Numbered from the stretch's first letter, positions 1-53,646 are shown. The stretch: 64,000 bases of DNA from Vermamoeba vermiformis (GCA_045837725.1 JBEWZL010000109.1:372001-436000); one strand, 5' to 3'. Numbers and translations: made by a program. The notes: generated from the sequence alone by a model not told the origin.

Positions 1-2590
1 GCAAACATCTTCTCATTGCAATCGTTGCATTCGATGAGCAGTCTCGGACACTGATTTCTGTGGCCGTTGTAATTGCGAGCAGTGAATGAGCCGTTGCAGT
101 CAGGGCACGTCAAGAGCTGTTCGGGGCAGTTGCTCTCGTGCACCGCCAGAGAGGCTAGCTCCACATATCCGCGACACCATTTGCACGGCCACTTCCCGCA
201 CTGAGTCAAATGTTTGTCCAAGTCACCGGCGACGAAGGAGTTTCTTACATTTCTTGCACGCCAACTGACGCTTCGGGCACAAACCTGACACGTGCCAGTA
301 GTAATCACTGACAGAGACTTGCTGTTGGCACATCGAGCATGTCTTTCGTTGTTTCGGGCATTGAAACGTAACATGATGATTGTACAGGTAGGCACTGATT
401 TGTACTTGACACTTCTCGCACGTAACTATTCTAGCCGTGCAGTGGTTTGCCAAGTGATCCTCGCACTCACTTGGTGTGATCAACTTGCGACACTTTTGAC
501 ACGGAGTCTTGCGTCGAGGACAGTCTTGATTAGTGTGCTGCGAGAGCTCAGTGGTGACCAGTTGCTGACCGCACTGTTGACACGCGACCATTCTTCTGCG
601 GCATTGGCTTGACACGTGTTGGTCGTAATTGCGGGCCGTAACATTTTCTTTGCATTGTGAGCACTCTAACATCCGTTTAGGACAGCGCTTCACGTGCTCT
701 TGATAATCACTCGCGGCGTAGGATATTTTGCACGTGGCACATGGCAGTACACGTCTTGGACACTGAGTTGACAAGTGCTTGTTGTAGTCGTCGACAGGTA
801 CTTGCTCTTTGCACTTCGGACACGGCACTTGGCGCTTTGAACAGTCTTTTGATCGGTGCTGATCACGATAGCTCGCAGTGAATCGTTCTTTGCAAAGGTC
901 ACATGTCACGACTCGTCCTGGGCATTGAGTAGACATGTGTAGCTCGATGAAGTTGGCAGCGTACTGTCCCTGACACCCGTTACATGTTACTTGTCGTCTC
1001 GGGCATTGGCTTGACATGTGTTCGTCGAGCACATTGAATGCAACAGACCTGTGACATTGTTGACATGATACTCGTCGCATAGGACACTGTTGAAGGTGAA
1101 TTTTTTCCGTGTTTGGTTTAAATATCGTCCCACATTGATTGGGACAACTAATGCGTCTTTCTGGGCACTTCTCCAAGTGAACGTTTGCGTACATTTTCTT
1201 GAAAGCTCCGTGGCACTCGGGACATGTGAGTGGCATGTGATCGCATTGGTGCTCTTTGAGATCACGTCTGAGCATTCCTTGCTTACAACCGTAGTTGCAC
1301 GACACCAGCTTAAAGTCGCACTTGTCGAGGTGCTTTCTCAATGCATTCTTGTTTCCCTTCAAAATCATCACCGGACATCCTCGTGTGCTGTTGGGGCAAG
1401 GCACTTCGGAGTATGCGCAAGCTTGAACATGTTTTTGCAAGAACTGCCTTTGAACTTCAACAGTGCACTTGTCATTCGTGCATTTGGTTAACTGATACGG
1501 ACAGGTGCTTAAATGACGACTAATATACTCCTTGTAGGTCATTTGTCCCACGCATCCATTGTCGCATATTACACGTCTATTAAACCACCAAATTAGTAAA
1601 AAACCGGTCGGAGATTTCCGTTGGAATACCTCAATTCACACTGCTGGGTCTCGTGATTGGCGATGTCTTTTCTGACGAGCATGTAGCCACAAGCACGGCA
1701 TGGTACCTTGACCATTTCACAGATGTTGGACAGATGTTCTTCGATCAATCTGCGCATGATTCGTTGTTGACACTTTTGACAGCTGACGAGCAAGTTCTCG
1801 GGATTGAACTCGCACTTGACACGATGTTGTTCGATCTCACTGACCGTTGACCAAGCATTGCAATCTTTGAACTCGCATTGAACGGGCTTTTTTCTGATCA
1901 ATCGTCTGATTGGCTCGTTGGCAGTCCATTCAACAATCTTTCGGCAGTTCGGACATTTTCGGCCATTTTGTTCGATGCATGGCAAACAAAAGATGTTCTT
2001 GCAGCAATTGCCTTCCACGGCTTCTTTCAGTAAATCGAAACAAATTGCGCAATTGAGTTCCTCGAGAGTTAGTCGTCCAAATCTGGTTTCATAAAGTTGA
2101 TCTGAGTTCTCTTTGTCTTTTTGTCCAATTTCCTCCAGAGCATCTCTTGCAAAGGGGTTCATGGGGTGCATTACGTTGGTATTGTTGTTATTGAGAACAT
2201 TTAACATTAATTCTTTCGGATCGGGGCTGTCAAGGCGAGCGCAAAGTACTCGCAGTATAAATTCGGACGGATGAACAGACAACGCTGAATTTCTCCGCAC
2301 TATGATACATATTGCTTTGAATTCGGGTTCTTGAAGAAGAACGGAAAGTTTGCCTGGATTTTGGTGATGAATTAAAATTACGGAACTTAACAATAAAATT
2401 AATTAAAATAATTACCATCGTAGGTAGGCAATCTACCATAATATTGTTTAAATTTAGAAGGCAGGGTTCCGAGCTCTAGTTGTTCTAATTTTTCAACCAG
2501 AAAGCAATTTACAATGACTCGCCAGTATCTCTCCAAATCATTGATAGTTTGAGGCTTGGCGAGCTTGGCGATGAATTCTAATAGCTCCAT
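1..2590 (-). CDS. LOTUS-like + RING + TRAF-type zinc-finger array protein, copy 1 (3' end runs off the window; +1 frameshift near 243)
   Basis: ATG 2590 (MELLEFIAKL); GT-AG introns ~2415-2354 and ~1628-1578; RING CAICFDLLKEAVEGNCCKNIFCLPC..CPNCR; about 20 CxxC-x11-H-x3/4-C repeats. Repeats continue in the +1 frame past the TGA at 223-225 (GDLDKHLTQCGKWPCKWC..CPDCNGSF). Confidence 0.85.
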
Positions 2591-2786
2591 CGCTATTAAC
2601 CTGATGAAATTTAAAATTTAATTTGATTGATTGATTTGATCTGAAAGAACTTGACAAAACACTTACTATCATGACATGTTGGTTACCGAAGTTTAGTCCG
2701 CTGGATAATGAATTAAAAAAAGAAATCGAACGGAGAATTCGATCAAGTCACGTGCCTTTCGACATCTTTTGACACTTGAACCGAGG

Positions 2787-4864
2787 TCAATTAGAACAGA
2801 CATGCATCTTGCGAGTGAATGCAGGCATCGATTCTTTGCAATCAGGACACTGCACTTCACGCATTGGACACTTCTCAGAGTGCCTCGCAATGATGTTCGC
2901 AGCATATCTATTTTGGCAGTGTTGACACGGGACAGGCCGTTCAGGGCATATCGCTTCGTGACTTTCTACCTCGGAGAAATGAAACTCCTTGTGGCACGAG
3001 CCGCACCGTTCGGTTCGTTGGATGCACTTGCCAAAATGGGAACTCACTGCCTCCCATGTGAGCTCTTCTTTGCATGCCGCACACCAAACAGATCGCTTCT
3101 TGCACTCGTGCGACAGATGACGTTTGTAATCGCCCGCGTTGACCGGATCAGCACACTTTTCGCACTTGACTATTCTCATCGGACATTCTTTTGCTTCGTG
3201 GTGGCCAATTGAAGATGCCATTACTTGATCGCCGCACAATTGACACTCTACCGAACGTTGCGGGCAGCTACTTGACGTGTGTTTGGCGAGAGAGGCAGCA
3301 ACGACTGACGTCAAACACTTTGGACACTGCACTTTTCTACGTGAGCATGACGATTGAATGTGCTGTTGCAAATTGTTCTTCGAGACACTCGTGCCACATT
3401 TGTTCGGACATTTGATTTGCTGTGCAGGACAGGTGTCATTGTGCCTCTCCAAATCTTTCTTCTTAAGTACTTTAGCACAATCAGGGCACTTCACCGACAT
3501 GTGGTCGCACGTGTGCTTCTTCACATCTCTTCGTAGTATCTGTTGGTCGCAGCCGTGCTCACACTTCACAAGCTGAAAGTCACAAGTCGCAAGGTGCAAG
3601 TGTACTGCTCCCCGAAGTGGCTTTGCTTTGCAGCCTTGCGCACAGTTCGGACAGTCTATTTCGACGTAGTTGCACTCGCGATTGTGCTCTTGTAACAATC
3701 GTCTTTGCACTCGTACAAGACAGTTCCTGTTACTACATTGAACCATTTGATGTGAGCAACTGTTGAAATGCACCTCGTTGAACTGCTTGTAAGTCATTTG
3801 CTCGCCGCATCCGTGAGCACAAGGGATTAATCTGCGTGCGGCAATGATATTAGATAACTTTGTAACACATCGTGTGCAATGTACCGGAATTCGCAGAACT
3901 TTGTTGAGTGTTCGGCGAGATCTTTTTTGACGACCACTTTTCCGCAAGTGTAACACGGTACTTTGTTCATCTCGCATGCGTTGGATAGATGTTCTTCCAT
4001 CAAGTTGCGCATGATTCGTTGTTGACACTTCTGACAGCGGGCGAGAAGACTATTGGGATTGAACTCGCACTTGACACGATGTTGTTCGATCTCACTGACT
4101 GTTGACCACATACCACAGTCCTCATAGTCACATTGAATAGGCTTCTTGGCGATCAGTCGTCTGATTGGCTCGTTGGGTGTCCACGTGACGACTTTTCGAC
4201 AGTTCGGACATTTGCGACCATATCCTTCAATGCACGATGCACAAAACAGATTCTTGCAGCAGTTTCCTTCGACTGCGTTCTTCAGTAGCTCGAAGCAAAT
4301 GCCGCACGTGAGTTCTTCTGAAGTCAATCGACCGAACTTTGTGTCGGAGTTTCGTTCGGTTCCTTCAAGCTCCTTGATTGCGTCTAAAGCAAACGGATTT
4401 TGTCTCAGTTCGCTCTTCTCGTTTGTTATTGTAATATTATTGACAATATTGCTGTTGGTGGTGCCATTGGTTGGATGTAGTTTTAACCGCTGCTGATCCA
4501 GATCGTTGAATTGAGCACGAAGGATTTGCAGAAGAAAATTAGCTGGCCTTATCCATAATTTGGAGTGTTTTGTCGTCAAATAGCATATTGGTTTGAATTC
4601 AGGTTCTTGTACTAGAGCATTAAGTTTGCCTGGATTCGAAAAATAATTTTTAAAAATCAGAACCACAGTTATTTTCCAATTACAATTACCGTTTAGCGTT
4701 GAGCGTTGACCATAAAATATTTCATAATAATGTGGAAGAGAATCGAGTTGTAGTTCCTCTAATCTGTCAACCAGAAAGCATTTCACGATTAGTCGCCAGT
4801 ATCTCTCCGCTTCAGTAGGACCATTTATATTTATGAGCTTAGTAATGAAATCTACTAACTCCAT
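2787..4864 (-). CDS. LOTUS-like + RING + TRAF-type zinc-finger array protein, copy 2
   Basis: ATG 4864 (MELVDFITKL); two introns at the same positions as in copy 1; RING CGICFELLKNAVEGNCCKNLFCASC; about 15 zinc-finger repeats; no MATH domain. Confidence 0.85.
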
Positions 4865-5114
4865 TAACGCGATATCTTCGCACAACTAGCTAAAAAATAA
4901 TAAATATATTGCAAGTTCCGCATATTCTTGCTAGTGCATCGACTGATGCTCACCTGTTGTTACTATGACATATTGCGTATCTGATATAACGAGAGAAAAT
5001 TGAAAGGAGACTATGGGCGCGAAAAAAAAGTATGAAAAAAGTTTATAAAACTGTTCAGTTGCGACACGAATGTAAAGTAAATGAAAGAGTACCCTTTAAT
5101 CTTGAAAGGATCTC

Positions 5115-7115
5115 CTACCCTTTAAGCGCAAATAAGGCCTGCATCTTGCGGTCTTCACATTCTTGGTAGTGCTTCTGGAGATAGCTTGCGGCGAATATCT
5201 CTTTGCAGTACGAGCACGTGACGCCTCGTTCTGGGCACACTTTTATGTGCCTTGGCAAATTAGCTATGCGGAAGAATTTGCAGCACTCGGGACACTCCTC
5301 GGATCGCTCGGGACATTGCTCCATGATGTGAGTGACTTGCTCTTCTTTAAGAAATTGCGCCCGGCACAAGCGGCACTTGACAAGTAGTTTGCCACACAAA
5401 CGAGTCATATGCTCCTCGTATTCAAGTGCACAGACCAGCGTGGTGCATTTGGGACACTTGCTGAGTCGAATTGTACATTCTTTTGCTTCGTGATGTGCGA
5501 GAGAGGATGCAATCAGTTTCGTTCCACAGAGGCATTTAACCACACGCTGCGGACAATGATTTGTCACGTGTTTGGCAAGCGAGGCAAAGACCATTGATTC
5601 TTCACACTTTGAGCACTCAACTTTTCTACGAAGGCAAGACGATCGGACATGTTCCTGCAAGTCTTTCTGCATCACACCCGCGCCACAATTGTTGGGGCAG
5701 TTGACTGGTCGTGACGGACATTCGTCTTTGTGCCTCTCCAAGTCCTTCTTCTTGATTAATTCTGGACAATAAGGACATTTCACTGGCGTGTGGTCGCACG
5801 TGTGCTTCTTGTAGTTGCGTTTGATGATCTGTGCGTCACACTCGCACTGGACGAGTTGAAAGTTACACGTCGCAAGGTGTTGCTGAGTAAGGCCACGAAG
5901 AACATTCTGTTTGCAGCCATGTTCATTATTAGGGCAGTTGATAATAGCGTAATCGCACACTTGCTGGTGTTCTTGTAAGAGCTGTTTTTGCACTCGTGAA
6001 GGGCAATTCTTGTTGCGACATTTAACGAGCCGATGCGAACAGGTGTTGACGTGCTTAGTGTATTGTTTATAAGGTATTTCTTGCCCACATCCATGTGCAC
6101 ACAATACACGCCTAATACAACGTCAGATCAATTTAATTCTAATGTTTTAGAGATTCTACGTACCTGAAGTCGCAGAGTTGGGCCTCGTGTTCAACAAGAT
6201 CTTTTCGCACGATCATCAATCCGCAGTCGTGACACAGCACGTCATTCAGTTCACAGGTGTTGGCTAGATGTTCTTCCATCAAGTTGCGCATGATGCGTTG
6301 TTGACACTTCTGACAGCTGACTAGCAAACTGGTGGGATTGAACTCGCACTTGACACGATGTTGTTCGATCTCACTGACTGTTGACCACATACCACAGTCC
6401 TCATAGTCGCATTGAATAGGCTTCTTGGCGATCAATCGTCTGATTGGCTCATTGGGTGTCCACGTGACGACTTTTCGACAGTTCGGACATTTGCGACCAT
6501 ATCCTTCAATACACGATGCACAAAACAGATTCTTGCAGCAGTTTCCTTCAACTGCGTTCTTCAGTAGCTCGAAGCAAATGCCGCACGTGAGTTCTTCTGA
6601 AGTCAATCGACCAAACTTTGTGTCGGAATTTCTTTCGGTTCCTTCAAGCTCTTTGATGGCATCCAACGCAAATGGATTGAGAATTCCTTCCTTGTTTTTA
6701 ATGTTGTTGTTGTATTGTTAATATTGCTGGTAGATTGGATTGCAATTTCAGATCAGCAATATTTTGCTGAAGACGAAGAATGTGGATGAGAAAATCGGAA
6801 GGCTTGATCCATATGCTTGATTGTATTGTTGTCGTACAGCATATTACTTTGAACGCAGGTTCTTGCACAAGAACGGAAAGTTTGCCTGAATCCAAAGCTT
6901 AAAATCTGTAAGAGCTTTGATTGCAAAGGGAACTTACCATTATATGGAATTTGTCGGTCGTAGTATTTTTTAAAATAGTCGGGAAGGGAACTAAGTAGTA
7001 GTCCTTCAGATCTGTCGACAAGAAAAAGTTTTACCAATAATCGCCAATATCTCTCCTTATCATCGCTCGGATTATTCGTATGCACAATCTTAGCGATGGA
7101 TTCTAATAGTTCCAT
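5115..7115 (-). CDS. LOTUS-like + RING + TRAF-type zinc-finger array protein, copy 3 (+1 frameshift ~6700-6720)
   Basis: ATG 7115 (MELLESIAKI); same exon structure. The exon 2 frame ends at TAA 6698-6700 and resumes +1 as NNNIKNKEGILNPFALDAIKE into the RING. Confidence 0.8.
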
Positions 7116-7431
7116 ATTCTAAGCCTAAGATAAATCAACATTAGATCCGGATTGGTGTGGTGAGTTTGTATTGTAAGCTCACCTGTTGCTATCAAGCAAA
7201 ATAAATTGAAAAATTGCACGAGTAGTCAAACCAGGAGGATTTGGCCAAGGAAAACTTGCTGGTTTATGCATCCTTTATCCTTAATTGTTCCGTAATTACG
7301 GAATAATAGCTCTTTGCAAAGCGGATCTATCGTAGCGAAGGTGCAGCTCCAAGTACACTTACGGTAAGTATGACTGAGCTTATTGTTAACGCTGACCTGC
7401 TCTTTCGATGGCAGAAGTGCCTCGTACTCGT

Positions 7432-9122
7432 TCATTCGTACTGCTCTTCTTTCAACAAGGTCAATGCGTCTTCAGTGAGTTGCGTCAAGGTCACTGAATC
7501 GTTCAACACGTCAACAAGCCCTGCAATGCCATCGCTATCAAGGATCATTCCTGTGATTTTGCCAGCCAGGTGCGCGTTCTCATTGATGCTCTTCAAGTGC
7601 TTCGTGACCCGTGCGTACAACAGATCGCCCAACAAGTTGCGTTGTTGTTCTAGACTGCTGCTATTGGCTCAAATCATCCACTGTAATGATTTGATTGTTG
7701 TTGGGGATAGGTTTGGCTTGTTGGCTAGGAGCAGAAGTGTTGTCGCGTGAAGGCTTGTCTTGGTGTCGGTCACGGTAGTTGTCACGATGATTGTTGTAGC
7801 CATTGGATCTTGAACGATACGTTGTATAGCCTTGTGTGTCGGGCACAAAGTCCTTCTTATAAGGTCTGTTTGATTGGTGTCTATTGACAGGTTGGACACG
7901 TCGTGGAACATGGTCCCGAGAAGTGACTCCAGAACCACCATTGAAGCTCATGTAGAGCTCTTCAGGCATGTTCGGCCGTCTGCCCTTCGTGCGCACAGTG
8001 TGTTGTTGCATCAACTTGCGCCGTCGTTGTACATTAGGCACGCGCAAGTGTATTTGCAGAGGCCTCGAGAAACCAGGGAGAACACGACCGTTCATCTTGT
8101 CGAAGGCCCTCTGTGCTGATTCAGATGTAGTGAACCATATAAAGGCCGAATTAACTCCTCGATTGTCAGTCATTACACGTGCTGCTCGGATGTTGCCGTA
8201 AAAGTGGTTGAATCCGCTCCACAACTGGCCTTCAGTCACATCATCTTCCAAGTCCTTAATATATAGTATAACACCAGCATATTTAGTGAGATACTCTTGT
8301 CTTAATCGTTCGTATTTTTTGCGTAACTCGATCTTGTTTTCAGTTTGAGCGATGGTGTTGTCAGGATTGAATTCGCATGTAATTCGATGTTGTTCTATTT
8401 CTCCGATTGTTGACCATGTGGTGCAATTATTATAGTCACATTTAATTGGTTTCTTAGCGATCAGTCGTCTGATCGGTTCATTGGGTGTCCACGTGACAAC
8501 TTTTCTGCAGTTCGGACATTTTCGGCCGTACTTTTCAATGCACGACATGCAAAATAAATTCTTGCAACAATTTCCTTCAACTGCGTCCTTCAATAGCTCG
8601 AAACAAATGCCACAACTAAATTCTTCTAACGTCAACTTGCCGAATCTGGCTTCGTATTGATGCTCTTCCTTTTCTTTTAGTGCAAGTTGTATAAACGGAT
8701 TATTTTTGTTTGATATATAATCATCATCAGTGTTATTTGCGGCATTGGCTGGATTTGTCGTATCAAATCCGTTACTGACAACTCGCTGCAAGAAATCTGA
8801 TGGCTGAATCCACACTGCTGATTGTATTATTTTTGTATGGCATATTGTCTTGAATTCTGGCTCTTGAAGAAGAGCAGGGAGTTCGCCTGGATTTGATATT
8901 TTTTAATTTTCTGAACTTTATCGATTATTTTTGGTATAAATTACCGTTATTAAACGAGGCAAATCGACCATAATAATGTTTGAATAAAACAGGCAGAGCT
9001 TCTAATAATACCTGTTCTAATCCGTCAACAAGGAAGCAGTTTACGATTATTCGCCAATATCTCTCTTTATCATTGCTTATATTAATGCTTCCAAACTTGA
9101 TGATGAATTCTCGCAGCTTCAT
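7432..9122 (-). CDS. LOTUS-like + RING + zinc finger fused to PABP-derived RRM4, linker and MLLE/PABC domain (copy 4; +1 frameshift ~7661-7670)
   Basis: Same N-terminal domain, intron 1 and RING as copies 1-3. Then ELRKKYERLRQEYLTKYAGVILYIKDLEDD..AFDKMNGRVL (PABP RRM4-like) and, in the +1 frame, EQQRNLLGDLLY..LAGKITGMILD (MLLE-like). Confidence 0.85.
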
Positions 9123-11222: not shown

Positions 11223-14200
11223 TTATTTGGGCACAATTTCACCAGTCAAACCATCGATCCAGTGCTGCTTCTCAGGCGTGTAGTACAAGAAGACGCGCGA
11301 TGCAGGACCAGTGTACGAGCCAGGCACCGTGGCTACAACATCGACTGGGAACTCTGCCACACCACTGCAACGTGAAAGAACGATCAGTACTGCGCGTGTG
11401 TGGAGTGCACGAATAGGCTACTTACGCTTTGTCAAAGCCACGCCAGTAGAGTGCAATGTTGCGGCCAATGACCTCGTAGAAATCAATTTTCTCTTTCTTC
11501 ACGAGATCTTTCAGCTGTTCGTGACGCGGTTCAAAACCACCAGGCAAGCCAATGATCGCGAGCACCATCGGCAGATCTTCTTTGGTCACATTGGTCACTT
11601 TCACCATCACTTCACAGCCTTCACCTTCATTCACAGTCTTCTTGCTCAGCTTGGCCTCGAGCTTGACCTTGCAATCAGCCGCGGAGTTGGGCGTGAGAGC
11701 GTTGTAGCTGACTGTGAACTGGTACGGCAACGAGCCCTTGCCGAGCTTCAAATTCAACTTGTGCTTGCCGGAGCCGATCTTGACGTCATCAAAAGAGATT
11801 CGGATTGGCGTAGAGACTGATAAGTTGACGGCCTTTTCTTCGACGACCTTGCCGTTCAAAGACTACAGAGAACTTAGTTCGCCGTACTAAATAAGAATTT
11901 TTTCACGGGATACTTACGACTGTCAAAACTGGGGCACCGTCAGAAGGAGCAGGAGCAAACTCGGTGTTGTACATGTTCATGGCCTTCAAAGTCAACGAAG
12001 TGCCTTGCGTGTTGCCGTAGCCGTAGGGCGACAACGAGCTGTCCAAGAACTTCTTGCCGAGCTCAATGTTGCTTTGATAGGTCTTGGGATCAATTCTCAT
12101 CCAAGCCAACATTGCGAGTGCTGTGGCTTCAACTTCAGCATTGCCAGAGTACACGATCGTCGAGCCAGGCTTGTTCACGCGGCCATTCGTCTTGTCTTGC
12201 ATTGAAGCCAGCTGTTCAGCCAATTTCTTGGCTTGTTCAGTTTGCTTCAAACGATGGTTCACATTCGCTGCTAGTGCCATCACGTAAGAGGCCTCGTTCT
12301 TAGTCAATTTGTTCAAGTGCTCTAACTCTTTTTCAACTTGACTGGCACTGACACCAGCTTCAGTTACGGCCCACATGATGTACGCTGAAAGTCAAAAGTT
12401 AGCCTCTATAATCAGGTGTAATAGCGCTTTATCTTACCATGAGCCGCGTCCTTGGGAGGTGAAGCCCAAGCGTATTTGCCGTACGCCTGTTTGAACTCGC
12501 CTCTGCCGTCACGTTGAGCCAACAGCCATTGCACACTGCGGTCAAGGAGACCCTTGTCGACTGAACAAAGTATGAGTCACTGGCGCGACTAAAACAATGG
12601 TTGAACTTACTGTCGTACACGGGCATTGTGTCCAACAACATGACCACACCAAAGGCTGTGAGAGCAGTGTGGGCAGGAGTACCGCCGTACCACTCAAAAC
12701 CTCCTCCACGGCACTCGTAGCCCTTGATCTTGTCATATCCGACCTTGATCTTGGGAATGAAGTCATTGAGCTTGTTAATGTCGCCCTTGTTCGCGAACCA
12801 TTGGGCAGCGAGAATGAGCGGGAACATGGTCGAACCAACTTGCTCGAAGCAACCGCCAGGAGTCTGGCACAATCGATCGCACAATGCTTCGTAGCTGCCA
12901 GCAGGTGACGGGAAGAAGGCCAACGAAGCGGTGATGGAGTTCTTGGAGATCTTGCTGGGGATCTCAAACTCGATCTCTTTCTCGCCGTCGTGACGCAGAA
13001 CGTCAGAGGCATCGATTTGTTGAGGGAAACCTAACGGCATGATGCGCATTTGACGCTCAATCTTGTCCAAATGACCACTGCCTGATTTAGCTTCTAAATT
13101 CACCTTAGCGTGACCAGGGCTGTCGGCCTTGAGTTTGAGCAATCTTCTCACTGATAGAAATAACGTTAGTTCACGTGTACGGCGATAAAAAGTATCGAGC
13201 ACGCACCTCTTTCGTTGCCTTGCATCTTGATGGACTTGAAGTCCGCAGCTTTCTTCGCGTCAACGTGAAGATTAGAGTCGGTCTCGATGGACACCTTGGC
13301 GTCACTGAACTTCTTCTTGGTGTTGTTGACGAGCAAGATGGGCAGCAAGATCTCGTCAGTCTCGGTGACTTCAATAGGCACACGAGCGTCAGAGCTGAAA
13401 GGTTCCTTTGACTCGATCAAAAAGTCACTGACACCAAAGCCGTTGTTGCGATTGAACGCATCGACCATGAATCTGAACGAAGTGATGCTCTCGCTCAATG
13501 TGAAGTTAACGGTTGCCTCTCCCGAGTCATTTGTGGCAATTCCACCGGTCCAGTACAAAGTCTTGGTGAAGTCCGTTCTCTTCGTTGAATCGCGATTGGC
13601 TGATTTTTTGTGTCTGTACTCACGCGCGAGGAAAACATTGCCCGCTCTCTCGAAGTTAATTTCTGCACATAGACGTTAGGACTATTGTATATATAATATC
13701 GAAAGAGCTGTGACCAACCTTCGTTGTCTTTGACAGCTGGAGCGACTGGCACTGGAGGTGGTGGGGGTCCTCCATAGTAACCTGGAGGTGGTGGTGGCGG
13801 CATGGAGTAGGATGAAGACGGCATGGAGAGCATTGGTGGACTCATTCGTCGACCCATTGCTATTGGTGCTCTAGCTCCAGCTGAAGGTGAAGGCATGGAT
13901 GGTAGCGAAGGCTTAGCAGACTCCATGATTCGCGATGGAGCAATCATAGATTCTGCTCTTGGAGAAGGCGCGCTGTTGGTGACTGCCATTGGCGGTGCCA
14001 TTGGTGCTGAAGGTGCACTCAAAGTTGATGTTCTGGCCACTGTCTTAGCTGACAGAGTCGCAGTGTTGCGTACCGGTGAAAGGACACTTGTGGGGGCAAC
14101 ATTAGGTCGTCGTACAGGGGACGGGGGTAGTCCTCCTGACTGCATTGGAGGAGGTGGTGCTCCTCCTGCCATCGGAGGAGGGGGTACTCCATAAGAAATG

Positions 14201-16660
14201 CCACTGTTATATGGAGAGAGTGGAGGTGGTGGCGGTGGCGGAGACAATTTGACACCTTTAATCTGGACACAAATTCATTTTGTCAGTTACTACCCCATAT
14301 TATTAGTGCTTGAAAAAGTGACTTACCGAGTTTTCAGTTGATACCAAAACTCGTTCTGCAGACTTGTTGTCCTTCAAGAACGCAATCATATCCTCCTCTG
14401 ACTTGAAAAACACGAATCTGCGCCAGCCCTGGACAAACGGGTTAGAACTGATGATAATAGCGGTCAATCGAAATATACTCACTTGAGTGCCGAGCAACAA
14501 GTCAATTGCTTGGCGAGATTTGGGCTCCTATTTGAAGTAAATTTGGCTGTCAAAAAGCTCGTTCACTTCGGACTCGAGCAGAGCCATTTCGGGCAAACGA
14601 GGTGCCTTCTTTCGTTTCTATAAATAACCACATGTTAGCACGTGAAGAAAGACCGACTAGTTAAGGCTCCTCAAGCTTACCTCGACCATCTCGAGAATTG
14701 CGTCGTCGGTCACAGTAACGGCAAGTACGGCTTTAACGGGCTCGTCAAACTCGTTGGTAGTCTTGACTTTGACTTCAAGCTTTTGATTGGGCTTGAATGA
14801 CTCCTTGTTCGGAGTGATCTTGACTTTAATCTGACGAGCAAGATGACGGAAGATCAATCGCTCAGCAACAGGAGTGCTCTTCTTGAACAGAGTGGCTCTC
14901 AATACACCTACGATGTTTAAAGATCAGTCTATGATGTCGAAGTGGTCTTTGATGAGTATCTCTCACCTTCACCGGCTGCAGCAGGAGGATAGAATGTGAT
15001 GACTTTAGTGCCCTTGCTCTTCACGGGGGCTGAAGCGAGCTCAAAGTCACGCTTGTAGAGCTTGAGAGTGTAGTCGTCAGTTTCGTTTGACACGACTGTC
15101 AGCTCAACAGGCTCGCCCTTTTGATAAGTATCCTTGCTTGAGCGAATGATAGCACCACGCTTGTGCACTTTGCAAGTCTCACGAGGCAACTTGATCAAGT
15201 CGCGAATACCTCCAGGAGTAGTCACGTGCATAAAGTAAGTGTTGTGCTTCTCAGGCGTGAACACCACTTTGCCACGGCCCTCGTGGGAGGACTCGAGTTC
15301 GCAGACACGAGTGAACTTGGCCCTAAGAACATAGACGTCAGCACTTAGTAAAATACGCGGATTACGAATGAACGTACAAGTTCTCAATGGTCGCAGCGGC
15401 GCTGAAGCCAGAAGCTCTTGCAGCACTCGATTCGATGCTGAGCAGTTGTCCCTTGACATCAGCGGGATCACCGTTGTTTTGGAAGCACTCAAAGTACAGA
15501 CCGGTCTCGATGCCGTTGATCAGCTGACCGCTCTCAGGATAGAAGTTGACTTTGATCGTGGCCAACAGAATAGGAATGGTCTTGCCAATCGACTCAACAT
15601 TGCCTCCGTCTTGCACTGTGAATGTCAACGTGCCCTCACCGACCTTGATGTCATCGGGCAGTTTGAATGAGACACGGCAATCACCTTTCTGGTCCAAGGT
15701 GGTCTCACCGCTGCAATGCATTCGAGTTAGTTTTCATGAACAGCAAAGCACGTGATTGGTTGACTTACCGCCATACTTCAGCTCCGTCAATACGAGCAGT
15801 AGCCGTTACTTGGGCACCAGCGGGGATACCTCCTTCAGCTCTAATAGCCTAGTGTTCGTAAACATAATTAATATGAGGTTTTAAGAAGAAAAACTGAACG
15901 TAGGTAAACCAGTCATGAACGGATGGGAATTCCATACACGATTGCGAATATGAAATCAAATCAAATATTGTGGATCTTACATTTAATACTGCTACGGCAG
16001 TGTCTCCAGCACCAAGTCCTTTCTTTACAAACTCCGCTTGAAGTTTTAATTTTGGTGCTACGATTTACCAGTCAGTTAAGGCGGTGAAATAATATCTAAT
16101 AAATAGCAAAAATATTATTTAAGCGATTAATTACCAAAGAACTCGCGGACTTCGAAACTTCTTTCGGCTTTAGCGAAGATCATATCGGAGGTGCTTTCTT
16201 CCGCAACAATTGAGATTTTGTAGTCTCCTCCAGCAGCATCGTTGCCGATCTTCCATGAAGCAACGATAACGGAGTTCGAGATCGGCACGAGTGAGTACTT
16301 TGCAACCTCATCTCCTAAAAAGAAAATTTAAATTTGAAATCCTTAGAAAATCTAGCATTGGCACTTTATATGCTATCGAGCAGTATATAAGTAAGGGATC
16401 ATGACGTAGAATTTTTCGTAATTTACCTTTGGGCGAAGAGATGGTAACACCGAACTTGGGAGTGAACTGCTTCGGCAAGGGATGATTAGTAATACCGTTA
16501 AGCACAACTGCACGGATCAAGACCCATTCATCTAAATTATAAATAGGTCTGTCCGTGGAGATGTGGATGTCGTAACGGTCGAGTAAGAAGTTGACGCTAG
16601 ACTAAATTCAAAATAAATCAGCAAATAATTAATCAATATGACCACAATATTACTTACCAT
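11223..16660 (-). CDS. Alpha-2-macroglobulin / thioester-containing protein of bacterial-like type, no signal peptide, in-frame TAG at 14528-14530
   Basis: ATG-only exon at 16660-16658, then SSVNFLLDRYDIHISTDRPIY (MG2). Also DLLLGTQGWRRF, a Pro-rich bait-like region, RTDFTKTLYW, thioester motif PGGCFEQ (12840-12857), GGGFEWYG and C-terminal PGSYTGPASRVFLYYTPE; stop at 11223. Confidence 0.9.
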
Positions 16661-18398: not shown

Positions 18399-18799
18399 GA
18401 TTGGATCTGATTAATTATTTTTTTCCGAGTGAACTTCAACTACACAACCACCCGCAAATCCTTCCTCACAGTAATCAGTTTAAAGTATACATTGACCCGC
18501 AATCGGTCTTTCGACAGCTGTATGTTTAACGTAGAAGCGCAGAAAAAGCTGGAATTCTATCATGGCAAGAACTAACCACAATCAGCCATTTAAAAAATAT
18601 CACCCAAAATGACAGCTTGGCACAATATCACCCCAAAATTTACAGCCTTCGCCTAACCAAAATATCGATTTATTTCCACTAATTTACCTGAATCCATCCA
18701 CACGTGCCTCGACATAAATTCTCTGAGAATCGTTACATGGCATAATTATCTTCAACACGAATAATATAAACAGCAACAGCAAAGTTAAGCTTCCTTAAC

Positions 18800-19522
18800 A
18801 TGCAATTTTTCAACAATGAATCCAGCACTATCCGAGTCATCGCACCTGGCTTGGTTTTGATGAAAGGCGCATTGAACAAGGACAAACAAATATGGCTTGC
18901 CGAGTACGCGACGAAGGCAGGAGAAGATCCACAACACGGCTTTTGGACGACTCTAGCCAACGGCGAGAAAGTGCTCAATAACGATAAAGGACGCGGCCGA
19001 ATTTACGACACTATCCACGCGTTTCCTGACGCTCAATTAGTGCAAGGTCTATGTGAAGAGATGGTGGCAGTTGCCCGCAAGAACGACGCACACATGCCGC
19101 AGATGTTCCCAACGCATCTTCTATTGCTCAAGTACGCTACTCCCGATGGCATGTGCTGGCATAGCGACTCCGATCCTAATGACGGAGACAACGACCATCC
19201 TATTGTATCTGTCACTATTGGAAATTCTTGCGAGTTTGGTTACAAGCTTACCGGAAAACCTGAATCTACTATTACCCTCGAATCAGGCGACGTGTTAATA
19301 TGGGGAGGCCCTAATAGAATGCTCTTACATTGCGTTCATAAGGTCAACAGCAACACTTGCCCTGACTACTTGCCGATCAAGGACGTTCGCCTGAACTTTA
19401 CGTTCCGCGACGCACCGAACGTGCTTGGCAACGAAGACAAGTACAAAGTATGTGTAGAGTCCGATTATGACACATTGCTGCCCTTTGCGATCAAAAAGGC
19501 AGCTTTAGCAGCTAAAAAATAA
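18800..19522 (+). CDS. AlkB-family 2OG-Fe(II) dioxygenase, intronless
   Basis: HxD (WHSD), PIVSVTIG, LESGDVLIWGG..R...H and RLNFTFR motifs. Confidence 0.85.
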   Translation: MQFFNNESSTIRVIAPGLVLMKGALNKDKQIWLAEYATKAGEDPQHGFWTTLANGEKVLNNDKGRGRIYDTIHAFPDAQLVQGLCEEMVAVARKNDAHMPQMFPTHLLLLKYATPDGMCWHSDSDPNDGDNDHPIVSVTIGNSCEFGYKLTGKPESTITLESGDVLIWGGPNRMLLHCVHKVNSNTCPDYLPIKDVRLNFTFRDAPNVLGNEDKYKVCVESDYDTLLPFAIKKAALAAKK

Positions 19523-28592: not shown

Positions 28593-30607
28593 TTATTGAG
28601 GAGCTGATTTTACAATTTGTTCCAGGGCTTCAAATTTGTGGTCGTAATCTTCTTTTTCTCGTTCAATGTTTAGCTGCAGCCATTCTTCGGTATCTGCAAC
28701 AGCCTTTTCGAGTGTTTCTCTCGTCTCATCGATTATACCATCGCTTGACTCTTCATGAAGCATATTCTTAATGCTCGCCAAGTAGTTTTCAAGTCGATTT
28801 TTGGCTTCGTACGTTTGTCGGATCTTCTTATCTTCTTCTTCGAATTCTTTCGCCAGCTGTACCATGCGCTCTATCTCTTCCTCACTCAATCGATCTCTTT
28901 CGCTGGTAATTACTAGGTCGTTCGTCACTTGACTCGATTTTTCGGTTGCGCGTACGCTGAGAATCCCATTTACGTCGATCTCGAAAGTTACTTCTATTTG
29001 GGGAACTCCGCGAGGCGCTTTGGGTATTCCAGTCAATTCGAAGGTACCAAGGAGATGGTTGTCCTTCGTTTGGGCCCTTTCACCTTCGAAGATCTGGATC
29101 AACACTCGATCTTGATCGTCCTGGTACGTAGAGAAAATCTTGCTCTTTTTTGTCGGAATATGCGTGTTGCGGTCGATAATATTCGTCATAATTCCACCAA
29201 CCGTTTCAATTCCTAATGATAGCGGAGTAGTATCGATGACGATGTGAGAGGGTCCTTCGCCGCCCCAAGTAGACAAAGCGCCGCCTTGTGCTGCCGCTCC
29301 ATATGCCACTGACTCATCGGGGTTGACGCCCTTATTCAGTTCTTTGCCGTTGAAAAAGTCTTTGAGAAGTTGTTGGACCTTCGGGATCCGTGTAGATCCA
29401 CCGACCAAAACGATTTCATCCACTTGATGTTTCGCTAATTTAGCGTCGCTAAGAACTCTTTCTAAGGGACCCAAAGTCTTCTTAAACAAGTCCATATTGA
29501 GTTCTTCGAATTTGGCTCGACTTAAAGTTTCACTCAGATCTTGACCACCAAAAAATGACTCGATGTCAACACGTGTCTGATGAACGGTACTGAGAGATTT
29601 CTTGGCGCTTTCAACTGCTCGTCGCAACTTTTGTAAAGCCTTCTTGTCACCTGTAGCGTCCAAGCCAGTCTGTTTCTTGAACTGCTTCAGGAGATATTCC
29701 ATGACACGGTTGTCAAAGTCTTCACCACCAAGGTGCGTGTCACCATTCGTGGCCAAAACTTCAAACACGTCACCGTCAATAGTCAGCAACGAGACGTCAA
29801 ATGTTCCGCCACCGAGATCGAAGACGAGTACGTTCTGTTCTTTGCCTTTTTTGTCCACTCCGTAGGCCAAGGCGGCTGCGGTAGGTTCGTTGATGATGCG
29901 AAGTACGTTCAATCCCGCGATGCGTCCTGCATCCTTGGTGGCTTGTCTCTGCGCGTCGTTGAAGTAGGCCGGAACCGTGATGACTGCGTGACGAACGGGA
30001 GTGCCAAGGAATTCTTCGGCAATGTTCTTCATCTTCTGCAAGATCAACGCACTGATTTGTTCGGGGCTGAAGACCTTGCTCTCGCCTTGGACTTTAACTT
30101 CAATGTAGGGCTTGTTGTCGACATTCACGACCTTGTAGGGCAACAACTTGATGTCTCGTTGAACATTCACGTCGTCAAAAGTGCGTCCAATCAGTCGTTT
30201 GACGTCGAATACGGTGTTTGTCGGATTGATTGCCGCTTGATTCTTCGCAGCATCCCCGATCAATCTCTCGTCATCCGTGAATGCTACGTAACTTGGCGTG
30301 ATTCTGTTGCCAGACTCGTTTGGAATAATCTCGACTCGATCGTTCTTATAGATGCCAACACAACTGTACGTAGTGCCGAGATCGATGCCAATGACGGGTC
30401 CATCGGATTTCACTAAAATCAAGTTTAGTAAATCGAGCATTGATGCTGCGATTCGATGTTATTACCATCGTCAATGACTATATCTGCGGAGGCTAGGCTC
30501 GTTGCGAAGGCAAACAATACTACTGAAAAAGAGGCATGGTTAGTTTTGGATCTGGCAATCTAACTCAATTTTCAGTCCTTACTGGTGATAATAGTGATCG
30601 TGTTCAT
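28593..30607 (-). CDS. ER-type Hsp70 (BiP/GRP78-like) with signal peptide; C-terminus uncertain
   Basis: Spliced signal peptide [75 protein letters not shown] and [12 protein letters not shown]. Confidence 0.92.
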
Positions 30608-44644: not shown

Positions 44645-47191
44645 ATGAAGCTCGTTAGAATTGATCTGATCTCGCTTATTATATTATTGCTCGCGAGGGC
44701 ATGCATAAATATAGCATTGGAGCCTATTGTCACTTACGACGAAGCTCTTTCAATCGACCTACGAACAAAGGATTGCACGATCACCGTTACAAAACCGGAA
44801 GAAGTTTCAAACATCGTTTCTTCAGCTCAACAAGGTAATATTTTATTTTTGGCAAACTTAAGTGAATTTATATGACGTGCAAAACGCTCAGGGTAATCCT
44901 GATCAAGACAAAATATAAAAATTATTTTTATTTAATCAGTCCGAATTGATAATTATCCAGGTTCTTTACTAATATTATGGATATTATACTGCAGTATAAT
45001 ATCGTTTACTAATGAATATTCAGGGGATGTAATTTGTTTGTTGCCTGGACTATTTTATCCGGCCCTCTCTTTGACGGAGAATCCTGCACGAGCAAATACT
45101 ACGGATTATATTACTATACGAGTGAATGATGTCAGTCTACTGCCTCCACCTGGTATAAGGATATCCAATGCTTACGAAAGCGTTCTACCTAAAATTGGCA
45201 GATCCGTTATCGAAGGAAGTACGTACCAAAAAGATAACGCTATTGATAACATACTTTTAATAATAATTAACTTAGTAGTAGTACTAAATATGGACCATGT
45301 CTAACGTGGTTGTAAAACTGAACTCTGATAATTCGTTCTAAATATAGATGTGCACCACATTGCCTTTCTTGGAATCGATTTTTACGCGCAAGTGGCGAAC
45401 GCCTTTAGTATAGAGCTGAGACCTATCAACACAACGAACGCGCCGCACCATGTCATTATGGATCGGTGCCTATTTAGAAGTTCTGTTCAGTTGTTTGCGG
45501 CGACTTCTTTCTCAGGCCAGTACATTGCACTATTAAACTCGCATATTACGGGTAAAATAATTCAATATTTAATTCGTAGAAATTATTTGGCTAATTTATT
45601 TTTTTTTGTAGCCGCTGCCTCTTTTGCTACGTATATCGCTGGCGGCTCTGTTATAAAGATCCAAAATAATTATTATGATTTTGAGGGTGTTTTCTTGAAA
45701 ATATCATCTTCCGTTGTGACCAACTCCGATATCGAGATCCGCTACAACAGATTCGAAAAGCGAGGACCGTAAGTACTCCAATGTTGTACCTATTATTGTT
45801 ATTAACAATGTAATAAGTACTAGTAACAATTTTGGGTTTGGTTTATTCCTTTATGAACGAGTATTGATCGAGAGTAACTTCATCGGTACGTGCCACTTTC
45901 ATGATCCGAAAACTTACTTATTTAATTATTTCATTCAGCACCTTCGAAGTTGGACTTGAATATTTATAGTGACTTAATATTGTTTATGAACGATATTGGG
46001 CCTTGCTATCAGCGAGATTTTATTTTTAGAAACAATTGGGCAGAAAACTTTGTGAGAGGTAATTTTTAGTTGAATCATTTATAATTATTAAAGTTAAATC
46101 ATATTTATACAAAAAGGATTACTAAAGATTTTTCCCCAGGTTTTGGTATTTACCCAACAACTAATATATCTGGATCTGTCGCGATGGAGTACTCGATCCA
46201 AGATAATTTTTTGAAAGAAGGCAGTCAGATTATTCCATATTCATCGGGTACAGCTATTAATTTTACTCAAAATACTGTCTTAAATGGGCGCGGATCATAT
46301 TTTAGTGGCATTTACCCAAGGGATCTCAATTACGTCAGTTTCAACTTTGAGCGGAATATTATTGAAGCAGGAGAGTATGGTCTCGCTACTACTAATTTTA
46401 TTCCTATTGTGGATATAATTGGACCACAAAATTGGAATTGGCAAGATAATCTCGTAATTACAAGTACGTTCATAGGAACTTTTCCAAATAATACTTTGCT
46501 GGAATATAACATGACCGACGTTGGTTTTGTTGATATGGAAAATGATAACTATAACTTGCTGCCATCAAGTAAATATAGTGCGGAGAATTATGGCATGCAA
46601 TTAGGCGTGGATATTTGCAAGTTAATTAACACTGCAAAGCTTAATATTGTCGTACCTGACTGTCCACTAGATAGCGTTAATTTACAGCCAAATGAGGTTA
46701 TAGAGATCACAACCGACCTTACCATAAATGGAAATCTGACAATGTACCCAAACTCGACGTTACAAGTGCCGTTCGATGACGGCAAACTTAACGTCTCGAA
46801 CTGTGCAGATTTTGCGGGAATTTTAAATTTGGTGAATACTGCAAACGTTGAAAATGGTACGGAGGTTATTATAGCCTACTATGGATGCTATGGTGGTGGA
46901 GAATTCGACGAAATTTCATTGGTTGACGAATCGGAAGATCCGTGTTTGTTAAAATATGTCAAATTGACATATGCACCAACATATTTATCAGCAACAATAA
47001 CAATTGTCAACACATGCAACGACAGTAATAACAATACGCAACAACTTCCTGGTTGGGCCATAGCAGTGATCATTATCGGCAGCTGTTTGGTGCTCGCAGT
47101 AATATTCATAGTCATTTCTGTGACAGTGGGCCCATGTAAAACGAAAAAGTTCTCAGTTTTTTTACAAAATATATATAATAAGAATAAATGA
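44645..47191 (+). CDS. Beta-helix (pectin-lyase-like fold) type I membrane protein, copy A
   Basis: Signal peptide; seven exons in frame; QQG|DVICL, LPPPGIRISNAYESVLPKI, PHHVIMDRC, DVGFVDMENDNYNLLPSSKY..LGVDI; Cys-rich juxtamembrane domain; TM. Confidence 0.72.
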
Positions 47192-51168: not shown

Positions 51169-53646
51169 ATGAAAATAGTTACAATTGATCTGATCTCGCT
51201 TATTATATTATTGCTTGCGAGGGCATGCATAAATATAGCATTGGAGCCTATTGTCACTTACGACGAAGCTCTTTCAATCGACCTACGAACAAAGGATTGC
51301 ACGATCACCGTTACAAAACCGGAAGAAGTTTCAAACATCGTTTCTTCAGCTCAACAAGGTAATATTTTATTTGAAAATTTAAGTTAATTTATATGACGCA
51401 CAAAACGCTCAGGGTAATCCTGATCAAGACAAATACACAAAAATTATTTTTATTTAATCAGTCCGAATTGATAATTATCCAGTTATTTACTAATATTATG
51501 GCAGTATATATTATCATTTCCTAATGTATTATTCAGGGGATGTAATTTGTTTGTTGCCTGGACTATTTTATCCGGCCCTCTCTTTGACGGAGAATCCTGC
51601 TCGAGCAAATACTACGGATTATATTATTATACGAGTGAATGATGTCAGTGTACTGCCACCACCTGGTATAAGGATATCCAATGCTTACGAAAGCGTTCTA
51701 CCTAAAATTGACGGCAGATCCGCTATCGAAGGAAGTACGTACCAAAAGAATATTACGTCATTGATACTATATAATAATAATACTAACATACTAAATATGG
51801 ACTATGTCTAACGTCGTTGTAAAACTGATCTGATAATTTGTTCTAAATATAGATGTGCATCACATTGCCTTTCTTGGAATCGATTTTTACGCGCAAGTGG
51901 CGAACGCCTTTAATATGGAACTAAGGCCTATCAATGCAACGAACGCGCCGCACCATATCATAATAGATCAGTGCCTATTTAGAAGTTCTGTTCTGTTAGT
52001 TTCGACGACTTTCTTCTCGGGCCAGTACATTGCGCTATTAAACTCGCATATTACAGGTAAAATAAATCAATATTTAATTCGTAGAAATTATTTGGCTAAT
52101 TTATTTTTTTTTGTAGCCGCTGCCTCTGTTGCTACGTATATCGCTGGCGGCTCTGTTATAAAGATCCAAAATAATTATTATGATTTTGAGGATGTGTTCT
52201 TAGACATACTATCATCCGTTGTGACCAACTCTGATATCGAGATCCGCTACAACAGATTCGAAAAGCGAGGACCGTAAGTACTCTGAAGTCTTACCTATTG
52301 CTATTAACATAACATTAGGACTATTAACTATTTTGGGTTTGTTTTATCCCTTTATGAACGAGTATTGATCGAGAATAACTTCATCGGTACGTGGCGCTCA
52401 TGATCCGCAAAACTTATTTAATTATTTCATTCAGCGCCTTCGAACTTGGACTTGAATATTTATAGCGACTTGATGTTGTTTATGAACGATATTGGGTCTT
52501 GCTATCAGCGAGATTTTATTTTTAGAAATAATTGGGTGGAAAACTTTGTGAGAGGTAATTTTTAGTTGAATCATTTATATTTAAGGATTACTAAAGGATA
52601 TTTTTCCAGGTTTCATTATTTATCCATCAACTAATTGGACTGGATCCGTTGCGACGGAGTACTCGATCCAAGATAATTTTTTGAAAGAAGGCAGTCACAT
52701 ACTTCCCTATACATCGGGTACGGCTATTAATTTTACTCAAAATACTGTCTTAAATGGGCGTGGCGCATTTTTTGCATTCATTGACCCAACGGATCTCAAT
52801 AACGTCAGTTTGAACTTTGAGCGGAATATTATTGAAGCAGGAGAGTACGGTCTCGGTACTACTAATTTTATTCCTATTGTGGATTTAATTGGACCACAAA
52901 ATTGGAATTGGCAAGATAATCTCGTAATTACAAGTACGTACAGACGAACTTTTCCAAATAATACTTTGCTGGAATATAACATGACCGACGTTGGTTTTGT
53001 TGATATGGAAAATGATAACTATAACTTGCTGCCATCGAGTAAATATAGTGCAGAGAATTATGGCGTGCAATTGGGCGTGGATATTTGCAAGTTAATTAAC
53101 ACTGCAAAGCTTAACATTGTCGTACCTGGCTGTCCACTAGATAGCGTTAATTTACAGCCAAACGAGGTTATAGAGATCACGACCGACGTTACCATAAATG
53201 GAAATCTTACAATGTACCCGAACTCGACGTTACAAGTGCCGTTCGATGACGGCAAACTTAACGTCTCGAACTGTGCAGATTTTGCGGGAATTTTAAGTTT
53301 GGTGAATACAGCAAACGTTGAAAATGGTACGGAGATTATTATAGCCTACTATGGATGCTATGGTGGAGGAGAATTCGACGAAATTTCATTGGTCGACGAA
53401 TCGGAAGATCCGTGTTTGTCAAAGTATGTCAAATTGACGTATGCACCAACGTCTTTATCAGCAACGATAACAATTGTCAACACATGCAACAACAATAATA
53501 ACAATACGCAACAATTGCCTGATTGGGCCATAGCAGTGATCGTTATCGGCATCTGTTTGGTGCTCGTGGTAATATTCATAGTCATTTCTGTGACAGTGCC
53601 TGCTGTTCGCCAAAAAGTTTTTCCGTTTGCTCCTCGACGCAAATGA
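51169..53646 (+). CDS. Beta-helix type I membrane protein, copy B
   Basis: Paralog of 44645-47191 with the same exon structure; tail VPAVRQKVFPFAPRRK. Confidence 0.75.

Follow-up and report, generated by a model that had tools for sequence, protein, structure and literature searches.

Relation to described systems

TRAF6 requires its RING domain and zinc fingers for ubiquitin ligase (E3) activity with Ubc13-Uev1A (PMC10181826). Dictyostelium TrafA-E, likewise amoebozoan RING and TRAF-finger paralogues, are described in the same source as having all stereotypical TRAF domains, the TRAF domain included, and one of them acts in cell-autonomous defence (PMC10181826). Here, we describe a 64,000-nucleotide (nt) stretch of DNA from Vermamoeba vermiformis (the window), of which positions 1-9122 carry, on the minus strand, four genes (g1-g4) that probably make up a tandem family of TRAF6-like RING-zinc-finger ubiquitin ligases restricted to the lineage of this amoebozoan. 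All four share a cassette in which a head of about 100 amino acids (aa), predicted to be a winged helix, is joined through a low-complexity linker to a RING and a first TRAF-type finger, followed either by a longer array of fingers (g1-g3) or by an RRM-MLLE module (g4).

Among solved structures, the N-terminal region of TRAF6 (5vo0, 3hcs) comes closest in sequence to the RING-finger core, with which it is colinear over the RING and three fingers, and by analogy the family would work in the same way, with RING and first finger recruiting the ubiquitin-conjugating enzyme (E2). Unlike TRAF6, g2-g4 have neither the TRAF-N coiled coil nor the TRAF-C/MATH domain, and the family has the additional head, a replaced His ligand, a CC pair and, in g1-g3, 12 to 19 or more fingers. 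The contrast with TrafA-E is similar, i.e. no TRAF domain in g2-g4 and an added head predicted to be a winged helix. Since they lack the TRAF domain, they are TRAF-like rather than members of the TRAF family.

Fusions of OST-HTH/LOTUS domains with RING and other ubiquitin-system domains were described in 2010 (Anantharaman, Zhang and Aravind, PMC2848206). Therefore, a LOTUS-RING ligase is not new in kind, and the family would be another OST-HTH-ubiquitin fusion if its head is LOTUS. The passage on these fusions mentions no Amoebozoa, TRAF-finger arrays or PABP tail, and, unlike the OST-HTH proteins treated there, the head of our family is missed by the Pfam profile PF12872. With the extended LOTUS (eLOTUS) domains of Oskar, TDRD5 and TDRD7, as described in PMC5458760, it shares the predicted fold, and its model has a helix after the wing (residues 90-99), where eLOTUS has alpha-5; these proteins, however, are not ligases but act in the animal germline and carry Tudor or OSK domains, and they gave no profile match to the family. 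Literature searches outside subscription journals returned no description of a LOTUS-like, RING and TRAF-finger family in amoebae. New are a head family that had gone unrecognised, the joining of this head to a TRAF6-type core with long arrays of fingers, and the paralogue with a PABP tail.

CNOT4 combines a RING with an RRM, and UBR5 a HECT domain with an MLLE. The g4 protein resembles them in joining a ligase domain to an RRM and an MLLE and would, as they do, sit on messenger ribonucleoproteins (mRNPs); unlike in CNOT4, its RING core is TRAF6-like and its tail is colinear with the C-terminal part of PABP. XAF1 and TRAFD1 likewise carry TRAF-type finger arrays without TRAF-C; they are not known to have a RING or a winged-helix head, and their arrays are shorter.

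Gene array

An earlier note on this DNA had reported four head-to-tail genes sharing an N-terminal domain (N-domain) of about 100 aa and a RING, and this is borne out. When the window was searched in six frames with a profile of the N-domain, exactly four copies emerged, in seven open reading frame (ORF) pieces each at E<=4e-21; the next best ORF lies at E 0.6. The N-domain is cut by an intron into two ORF pieces in g1, g3 and g4, and in g2 the intron is open in frame; the N-terminal motif given in the note is present once exons 1 and 2 are joined. The gene models (Table 1), built from stop-to-stop ORFs and the minus-strand sequence and joined by coordinates, have introns of 52-62 nt of the GT..AG type, starting with GTA, and the co-oriented genes are spaced by about 200-320 bp. 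The tandem four-gene family is real, coordinates included.

RING-finger core and finger arrays

RING-family models of Pfam match all four genes, with best E-values from 2e-5 to 6e-4 (g3 2.3e-5, g4 2.6e-5) and five to seven RING-type models per gene (E 2e-5 up to about 1). The spacing is C-x2-C-x11-CC-x4-C-x2-C-x7-C-x2-C, with eight Cys; in an alignment with TRAF6, the window genes have Asn in place of the usual His ligand and one additional Cys ahead of ligand 3. Three relatives from sequence searches (P0001, P0002 and P0013) likewise have the CC pair and lack the His, and, judged by this residue pattern, the domain appears to be a CC-for-CxH variant of the RING. Two observations weigh against ligase function: every RING-model score stays under the Pfam gathering threshold, and activity is not guaranteed because the usual His ligand is absent. 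In a phmmer search of PDB sequences with the g2 RING and fingers 1-3, TRAF6 ranks first (5vo0_A, E 5.3e-9; 3hcs_A, E 5.3e-8), the 5vo0_A alignment extending over 155 residues across the RING and three fingers.

A RING followed by TRAF-type zinc fingers is present in g1-g4, i.e. arrays matching zf-TRAF in g1 (3.4e-34, 14 stretches), g2 (2e-28) and g3 (5.3e-27), and one finger in g4. Counted by pattern, the C2HC units range from one in g4 to 17 plus at least two in the tail of g1 that leaves the window (Table 1). The divergence into TRAF-type arrays of differing length or an RRM-MLLE module, as previously noted, is thereby borne out. The further claim that a MATH domain is missing holds for g2, g3 and g4, no piece of which matched a MATH or TRAF-C family at E<=1 in Pfam, but does not extend to g1, whose C-terminus lies beyond the window start. 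A weak Pfam match to TRAFD1-XIAF1_ZnF (E 0.023) was seen in g3.

PABP-derived tail of g4

In g4, Pfam identifies an RRM_1 (3.2e-11; 43.4 bits, cut-off 20.7) and an MLLE (5.8e-13; 49.1 bits, cut-off 27), and the tail is colinear with positions 262-457 and 532-595 of the PABP model TIGR01628. The scores against this model are 71 and 30 bits for g4 and 93.9 bits for P0002, with a cut-off of 497, and a full PABP, i.e. four RRMs, linker and MLLE above the cut-off, was not found in g4. By its domain order, the tail is best read as the captured RRM4-linker-MLLE end of a PABP and not as a PABP itself. P0002, a 546-aa ORF from a EukProt transcriptome with the source name Vermamoeba vermiformis, has the N-domain, RING, RRM and MLLE in a single frame, and this transcript is the closest named relative of the family. 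The RNA or RNP targeting proposed for the family has direct domain support in g4 (RRM and MLLE), but not in g1-g3, which are without RNA-binding domains.

Predicted fold of the N-terminal head

The head was modelled with AlphaFold on residues 1-108 of the orthologous P0002 (alignment A2; model m978de62fdb56), giving a predicted local distance difference test (pLDDT) of 79.4 and a predicted template modelling score of 0.68. In the model, helices at residues 3-11, 18-31, 40-51, 59-66 and 69-72 are followed by a hairpin (75-80 and 83-88), after which comes helix 90-99, and its Foldseek and VIA neighbours are winged helices. As far as prediction allows, the winged-helix fold is settled, and the outcome that the earlier note had named as refuting, a head that does not model as a LOTUS/winged helix, did not occur. 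An earlier AlphaFold model, which read through the g2 intron, reached a pLDDT of 61 with weak winged-helix matches only and is superseded.

The note had also likened the head to LOTUS/OST-HTH; the modelled winged helix agrees with this, but the PF12872 profile does not match. In a structure search among 48,161 chains, LOTUS or LOTUS-like entries took five of the top 50 places, and very few of the winged helices solved so far are of this kind. Oskar shares first place among the structural neighbours of the model, although identity in the structural alignments with Oskar, TDRD5 and TDRD7 is 3-14%. When the ESM Atlas was restricted to named clusters, three OST-HTH clusters led (0.85, 0.83 and 0.82). 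Ahead of the wing, the head has a K-L-x-x-L-L-x-x-P stretch resembling the LOTUS consensus.

Two features of the model can be set beside published descriptions. OST-HTH domains carry an additional helical insertion, with a Ghxph motif, that separates helices 2 and 3 (PMC2848206); in the model, helix 40-51 is followed, before the wing begins, by a helix of two turns (59-66) and one of a single turn (69-72), which are compatible with such an insert. The eLOTUS domain requires a C-terminal alpha-5 extension for Vasa binding (PMC5458760); helix 90-99 follows the wing, and the pLDDT drops there to 76 and then to 42. According to the Egl-BicD paper (PMC13186709), the domains of Egalitarian closely resemble LOTUS, a point that leans toward a LOTUS assignment of the head.

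A number of results speak against a LOTUS assignment. With Foldseek, the best E-value against the PDB was 3.9e-3, none being <=1e-3, and no LOTUS entry appeared in the top 50; the ESM Atlas scores are below 0.9 and count as leads only, and the unrestricted Atlas search with the head returned no usable match. Pfam found neither PF12872 nor anything convincing for any row of alignment A2 (12 rows, E<=10), and neither PF12872 nor any other family matched the head in the window pieces at E<=1. Profile searches gave noise only against PDB sequences (best E 0.55), and no OST-HTH was found among the nine proteins matched by the profile described below (Pfam scan, E<=0.01). The head motif G-[KE]-L-x-x-L satisfies Ghxph only loosely, with a charged residue at a hydrophobic position. 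Finally, the head has a near-neutral charge (K+R minus D+E between -2 and +6, isoelectric point 5.3-9.5), which does not clearly favour nucleic-acid binding.

Distribution of the head family

An exhaustive HMMER search of 1.84 billion cluster representatives with the profile returned nine proteins at E<=1e-3, of which five are genuine family members (P0002, P0003, P0004, P0008 and P0010). The other four (P0005, P0006, P0007 and P0009) are zf-BED repeat arrays with 10-27 BED stretches, which reach E 2e-9 to 8e-7 to the N-domain profile via many short stretches and were judged repeat-driven false matches. Of note, this case shows that repeat proteins can mimic significance in profile searches. 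From word-index protein searches, 1 of 1438, 0 of 216 and 3 of 916 candidates were kept, yielding P0001, P0002 and P0013 only. The head is a predicted winged-helix domain of about 100 aa that matches no Pfam model and that turned up in only a handful of 1.84 billion representatives.

Several candidates were rejected. A metagenome scan with a smaller alignment matched 277 stretches, none of them real, and a metagenome locus found with P0003 as the query (L001) proved to be a 16-residue chance match on a GC-rich, bacterial-looking contig. Three IMG/VR loci, each an off-frame ORF of 28-29 aa within a longer ORF, were spurious. A fold search of BFVD gave nothing at E<=1e-3, the best match (E 7.6e-3) being a generic winged helix.

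Evolution within the array

At the protein level, the paralogues are 46-54% identical in the head, 68-76% identical in the core of RING and first finger and 41-53% identical in the arrays, the exception being g2 and g3, whose cores are 100% identical over 115 aa. The DNA of these two cores is 96-98% identical, as opposed to 62-75% in most flanking windows, and the 14 differences in 345 bases are all synonymous. This pattern could stem from a conversion tract, or the two cores may have arisen from a recent common source and then been kept under strict constraint. By the Nei-Gojobori method, nonsynonymous divergence (dN) between the heads is 0.33-0.42 and synonymous divergence (dS) 1.2-1.8, with a dN/dS of about 0.2-0.35; in the core, dN is 0.16-0.19 and dN/dS is below that of the head. 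The N-domain is under purifying selection, with dS near saturation leaving room for site-specific positive selection. The description of the system as diversifying is not supported by these head ratios or by the wholly synonymous differences between the g2 and g3 cores.

Frame breaks, splicing and expression

Only g2 (654 aa) has an unbroken spliced frame. In this assembly, g1, g3 and g4 each contain a one-base frame break, which detracts from a reading of four working genes, as does the depth in two raw-read RNA-seq runs, where no more than 17 and 24 partial reads fell on the 9.3 kb; both runs bear the same species label as the best-matching DNA run. The breaks, near 240 (g1), at 6700-6717 (g3) and at 7665-7672 (g4), all need a +1 shift. 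In g1, there is a stop at 223-225, but TRAF fingers go on in the +1 frame to the window edge. The g3 break sits in a CAA-rich linker and the g4 break between linker and MLLE, the two g4 frames aligning to P0002 residues 58-471 (70% identity) and 470-546 (77%) and meeting at residues 470/471 with nothing lost. Tiny introns were ruled out, there being no GT..AG of plausible length to connect the frames. Programmed +1 frameshifting at the stop is formally possible in g3 and g4; it was rejected for g1, where read-through at the stop is unlikely because the finger repeat S-F-V-A-G puts the shift about five codons ahead of it. The breaks may be fresh mutations or errors in the assembly.

Contigs of run X5, whose RNA nature is only a guess of its record, contain the joints of three of the seven introns, i.e. 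1576/1630 and 2352/2415 in g1 and 6884/6937 in g3; for the g4 intron, support comes from P0002, a relative in spliced form.

Upstream of the g2 and g3 starts (4890-4953 and 7119-7182, minus strand), a common AACAG|GTGAGC, T-rich tract and AG resemble an intron of the 5' untranslated region of about 58-64 nt, for which no read evidence was seen. Separately, a contig of run X2 fuses position 2414, in the region of g1 intron 1, to 6699, in the g3 linker, omitting 4284 bases. This contig is DNA, has a depth of 10.9 (about 400-1100 in the depth table) and a shorter side of 22 letters, and the joint may have arisen as an artefact of the assembly graph between paralogues or may mark a haplotype with a deletion.

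Proposed mode of action and alternative explanations

By analogy to TRAF6, the RING and first finger would recruit E2 and build ubiquitin chains, while the winged-helix head and the interchangeable tails may pick the target. The RRM and MLLE of g4 would dock this paralogue on mRNPs and on proteins with a PAM2 motif, and the head, if it is LOTUS, would bind a DEAD-box helicase or G-rich RNA. We infer E3 activity, the choice of E2, the targets and the binding of RNA or a helicase.

As the likeliest reading, though with only about even confidence, we regard the head as a very divergent LOTUS/OST-HTH member or a convergent look-alike, and relationship to LOTUS by descent is close to a coin toss. 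It is quite possible, though not favoured, that the head has no relationship to LOTUS and is a winged helix of a generic kind, resembling those of ORC2/Cdc6, the cullin WHB or TTC3. In that event, it would serve in dimerisation, protein docking or DNA binding, and the proteins would be ordinary TRAF-like ligases whose link to RNA comes only via the PABP fusion of g4. Several findings argue the other way: the five LOTUS or LOTUS-like entries among the 50 top structures, although such domains are rare among solved winged helices, the lead of OST-HTH in all three best named Atlas clusters, the stretch before the wing resembling the LOTUS consensus, and the fact that one paralogue took on RNA-binding modules. 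A partly decayed array, in which g1, g3 and g4 are pseudogenes or tail-less truncated forms and only g2 works, would account for the single break in each of these genes and the near-zero depth in the two raw-read RNA-seq runs, and loss of copies is common in tandem families. We nevertheless consider it unlikely, since, its one shift apart, every gene still has long open frames with the domains in their full order, 14 differences with no nonsynonymous change between the g2 and g3 cores are hard to explain if g3 has long been drifting, and the g4 frames abut exactly on P0002. In addition, the X5 contigs hold spliced copies of g1 and g3 relatives, the sole X5 contig spanning window positions 1-1576 differs by a single one-base gap (position not given), and three one-base insertions in 9 kb may equally be assembly errors.

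The earlier note had gone further and suggested a diversifying, RNA- or RNP-targeting ubiquitin ligase system, possibly in antiviral cell-autonomous defence. Its premise that amoebal TRAF-type ligases act in defence is fair for Dictyostelium TrafE, but there the immunity is against a bacterium (PMC10181826). Tandem paralogues with exchanged tails, the TRAF6-like core and the alpha-2-macroglobulin/TEP-like gene 2-6 kb from the array could also be seen in this light. Vermamoeba is, moreover, a host of giant viruses. Against this stand the dN/dS ratios (about 0.2-0.35 for the head and smaller still for the core), which at this level of testing give no hint of positive selection, the lack of viral look-alikes of the head in BFVD and IMG/VR, and the restriction of RNA-binding domains to g4; the antiviral role is pure speculation, and we consider the whole proposal improbable. 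Just as remote is the idea that the head is a true eLOTUS through which a chain-building ligase of the TRAF6 type gains a DEAD-box helicase or G-rich RNA as partner, with the array, including the member with the captured PABP tail, acting as an amoebal RNP-surveillance or innate-immune system. A lineage-restricted family of TRAF6-like ligases is our preferred reading.

Coordinates and neighbouring genes

Table 1. Features of the array in window coordinates. Finger numbers are C2HC units; RING positions are Pfam stretches converted to window coordinates, and the g2 and g3 core positions were converted by hand from residue numbers.
Feature	Position	Strand	Description
g1	2590 to <1 (1..2590 in window)	-	exons 2590-2416, 2353-1630, 1576-226; in-frame stop 223-225; N-domain, RING and 17 fingers before the stop
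g1 continuation	239-3	-	+1 frame; at least 2 more fingers; leaves window
g2	4864-2787	-	exons 4864-4690, 4629-3885, 3831-2790; stop 2787-2789; N-domain, RING and 14 fingers; 654 aa
g3	7115-5115	-	exon 1 7115-6938; intron 1 6937-6886; exon 2 from 6885; N-domain, RING and 12 fingers
g3 exon 2	6885 to ~6701, then 6714-6164	-	frame break inside 6700-6717
g3 3' part	6163-5115	-	intron 2 6163-6112; last exon 6111-5118; stop 5115-5117
g4	9122-7432	-	exon 1 9122-8945; intron 8944-8887 (58 nt); exon 2 8886-7664; N-domain, RING, one TRAF-type finger, RRM, linker and MLLE
g4 end	7668-7432	-	in-frame TAG 7661-7663; MLLE in +1 frame 7668-7435; stop 7432-7434
N-domain, g4	8764..9122	-	about 100 aa, interrupted by the 58-nt intron; alignments A1, A2
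N-domain start, g3	7115	-	first ~100 codons
N-domain start, g2	4864	-	first ~100 codons
N-domain start, g1	2590	-	first ~100 codons
RING, g1	1929-2060	-	
RING, g2	4184-4315	-	
RING, g3	6463-6594	-	
RING, g4	8492-8623	-	
RING and finger-1 core, g2	4055..4399	-	345 nt; NPF motif to CEFNP; residues 136-250 of spliced protein
RING and finger-1 core, g3	about 6334-6678	-	protein identical to g2 core

Beyond the array, an alpha-2-macroglobulin/thioester-protein-like gene lies at 11400-15520 on the minus strand, with Pfam matches to A2M (5.8e-12 at 13169-13675) and, just below the cut-off, to TED_complement (1.2e-4 at 12432-13259). It is followed by an AlkB-like 2OG-Fe(II) oxygenase at 18770-19519 on the plus strand (1.3e-22) and, at 28593-30458 on the minus strand, by a 621-aa single-exon ORF recognised by eye as Hsp70/BiP-like. 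Two very similar plus-strand ORFs of about 350-370 aa with hydrophobic tails are found at 46085-47191 and 52585-53646, the former having no Pfam match.

Implications

Regardless of the nature of the head, the locus is a clear case of module swapping and sequence homogenisation in a tandem array. If the head is a true eLOTUS, LOTUS-helicase partnerships would exist outside animal germlines, and, if the surveillance reading is true, the array could act for example against giant viruses that replicate in the amoeba cytoplasm. If the head is LOTUS, the family would extend LOTUS-ubiquitin fusions to Amoebozoa and offer a tractable test of non-animal LOTUS ligands; if it is not, it would represent a small new winged-helix family attached to ligases.

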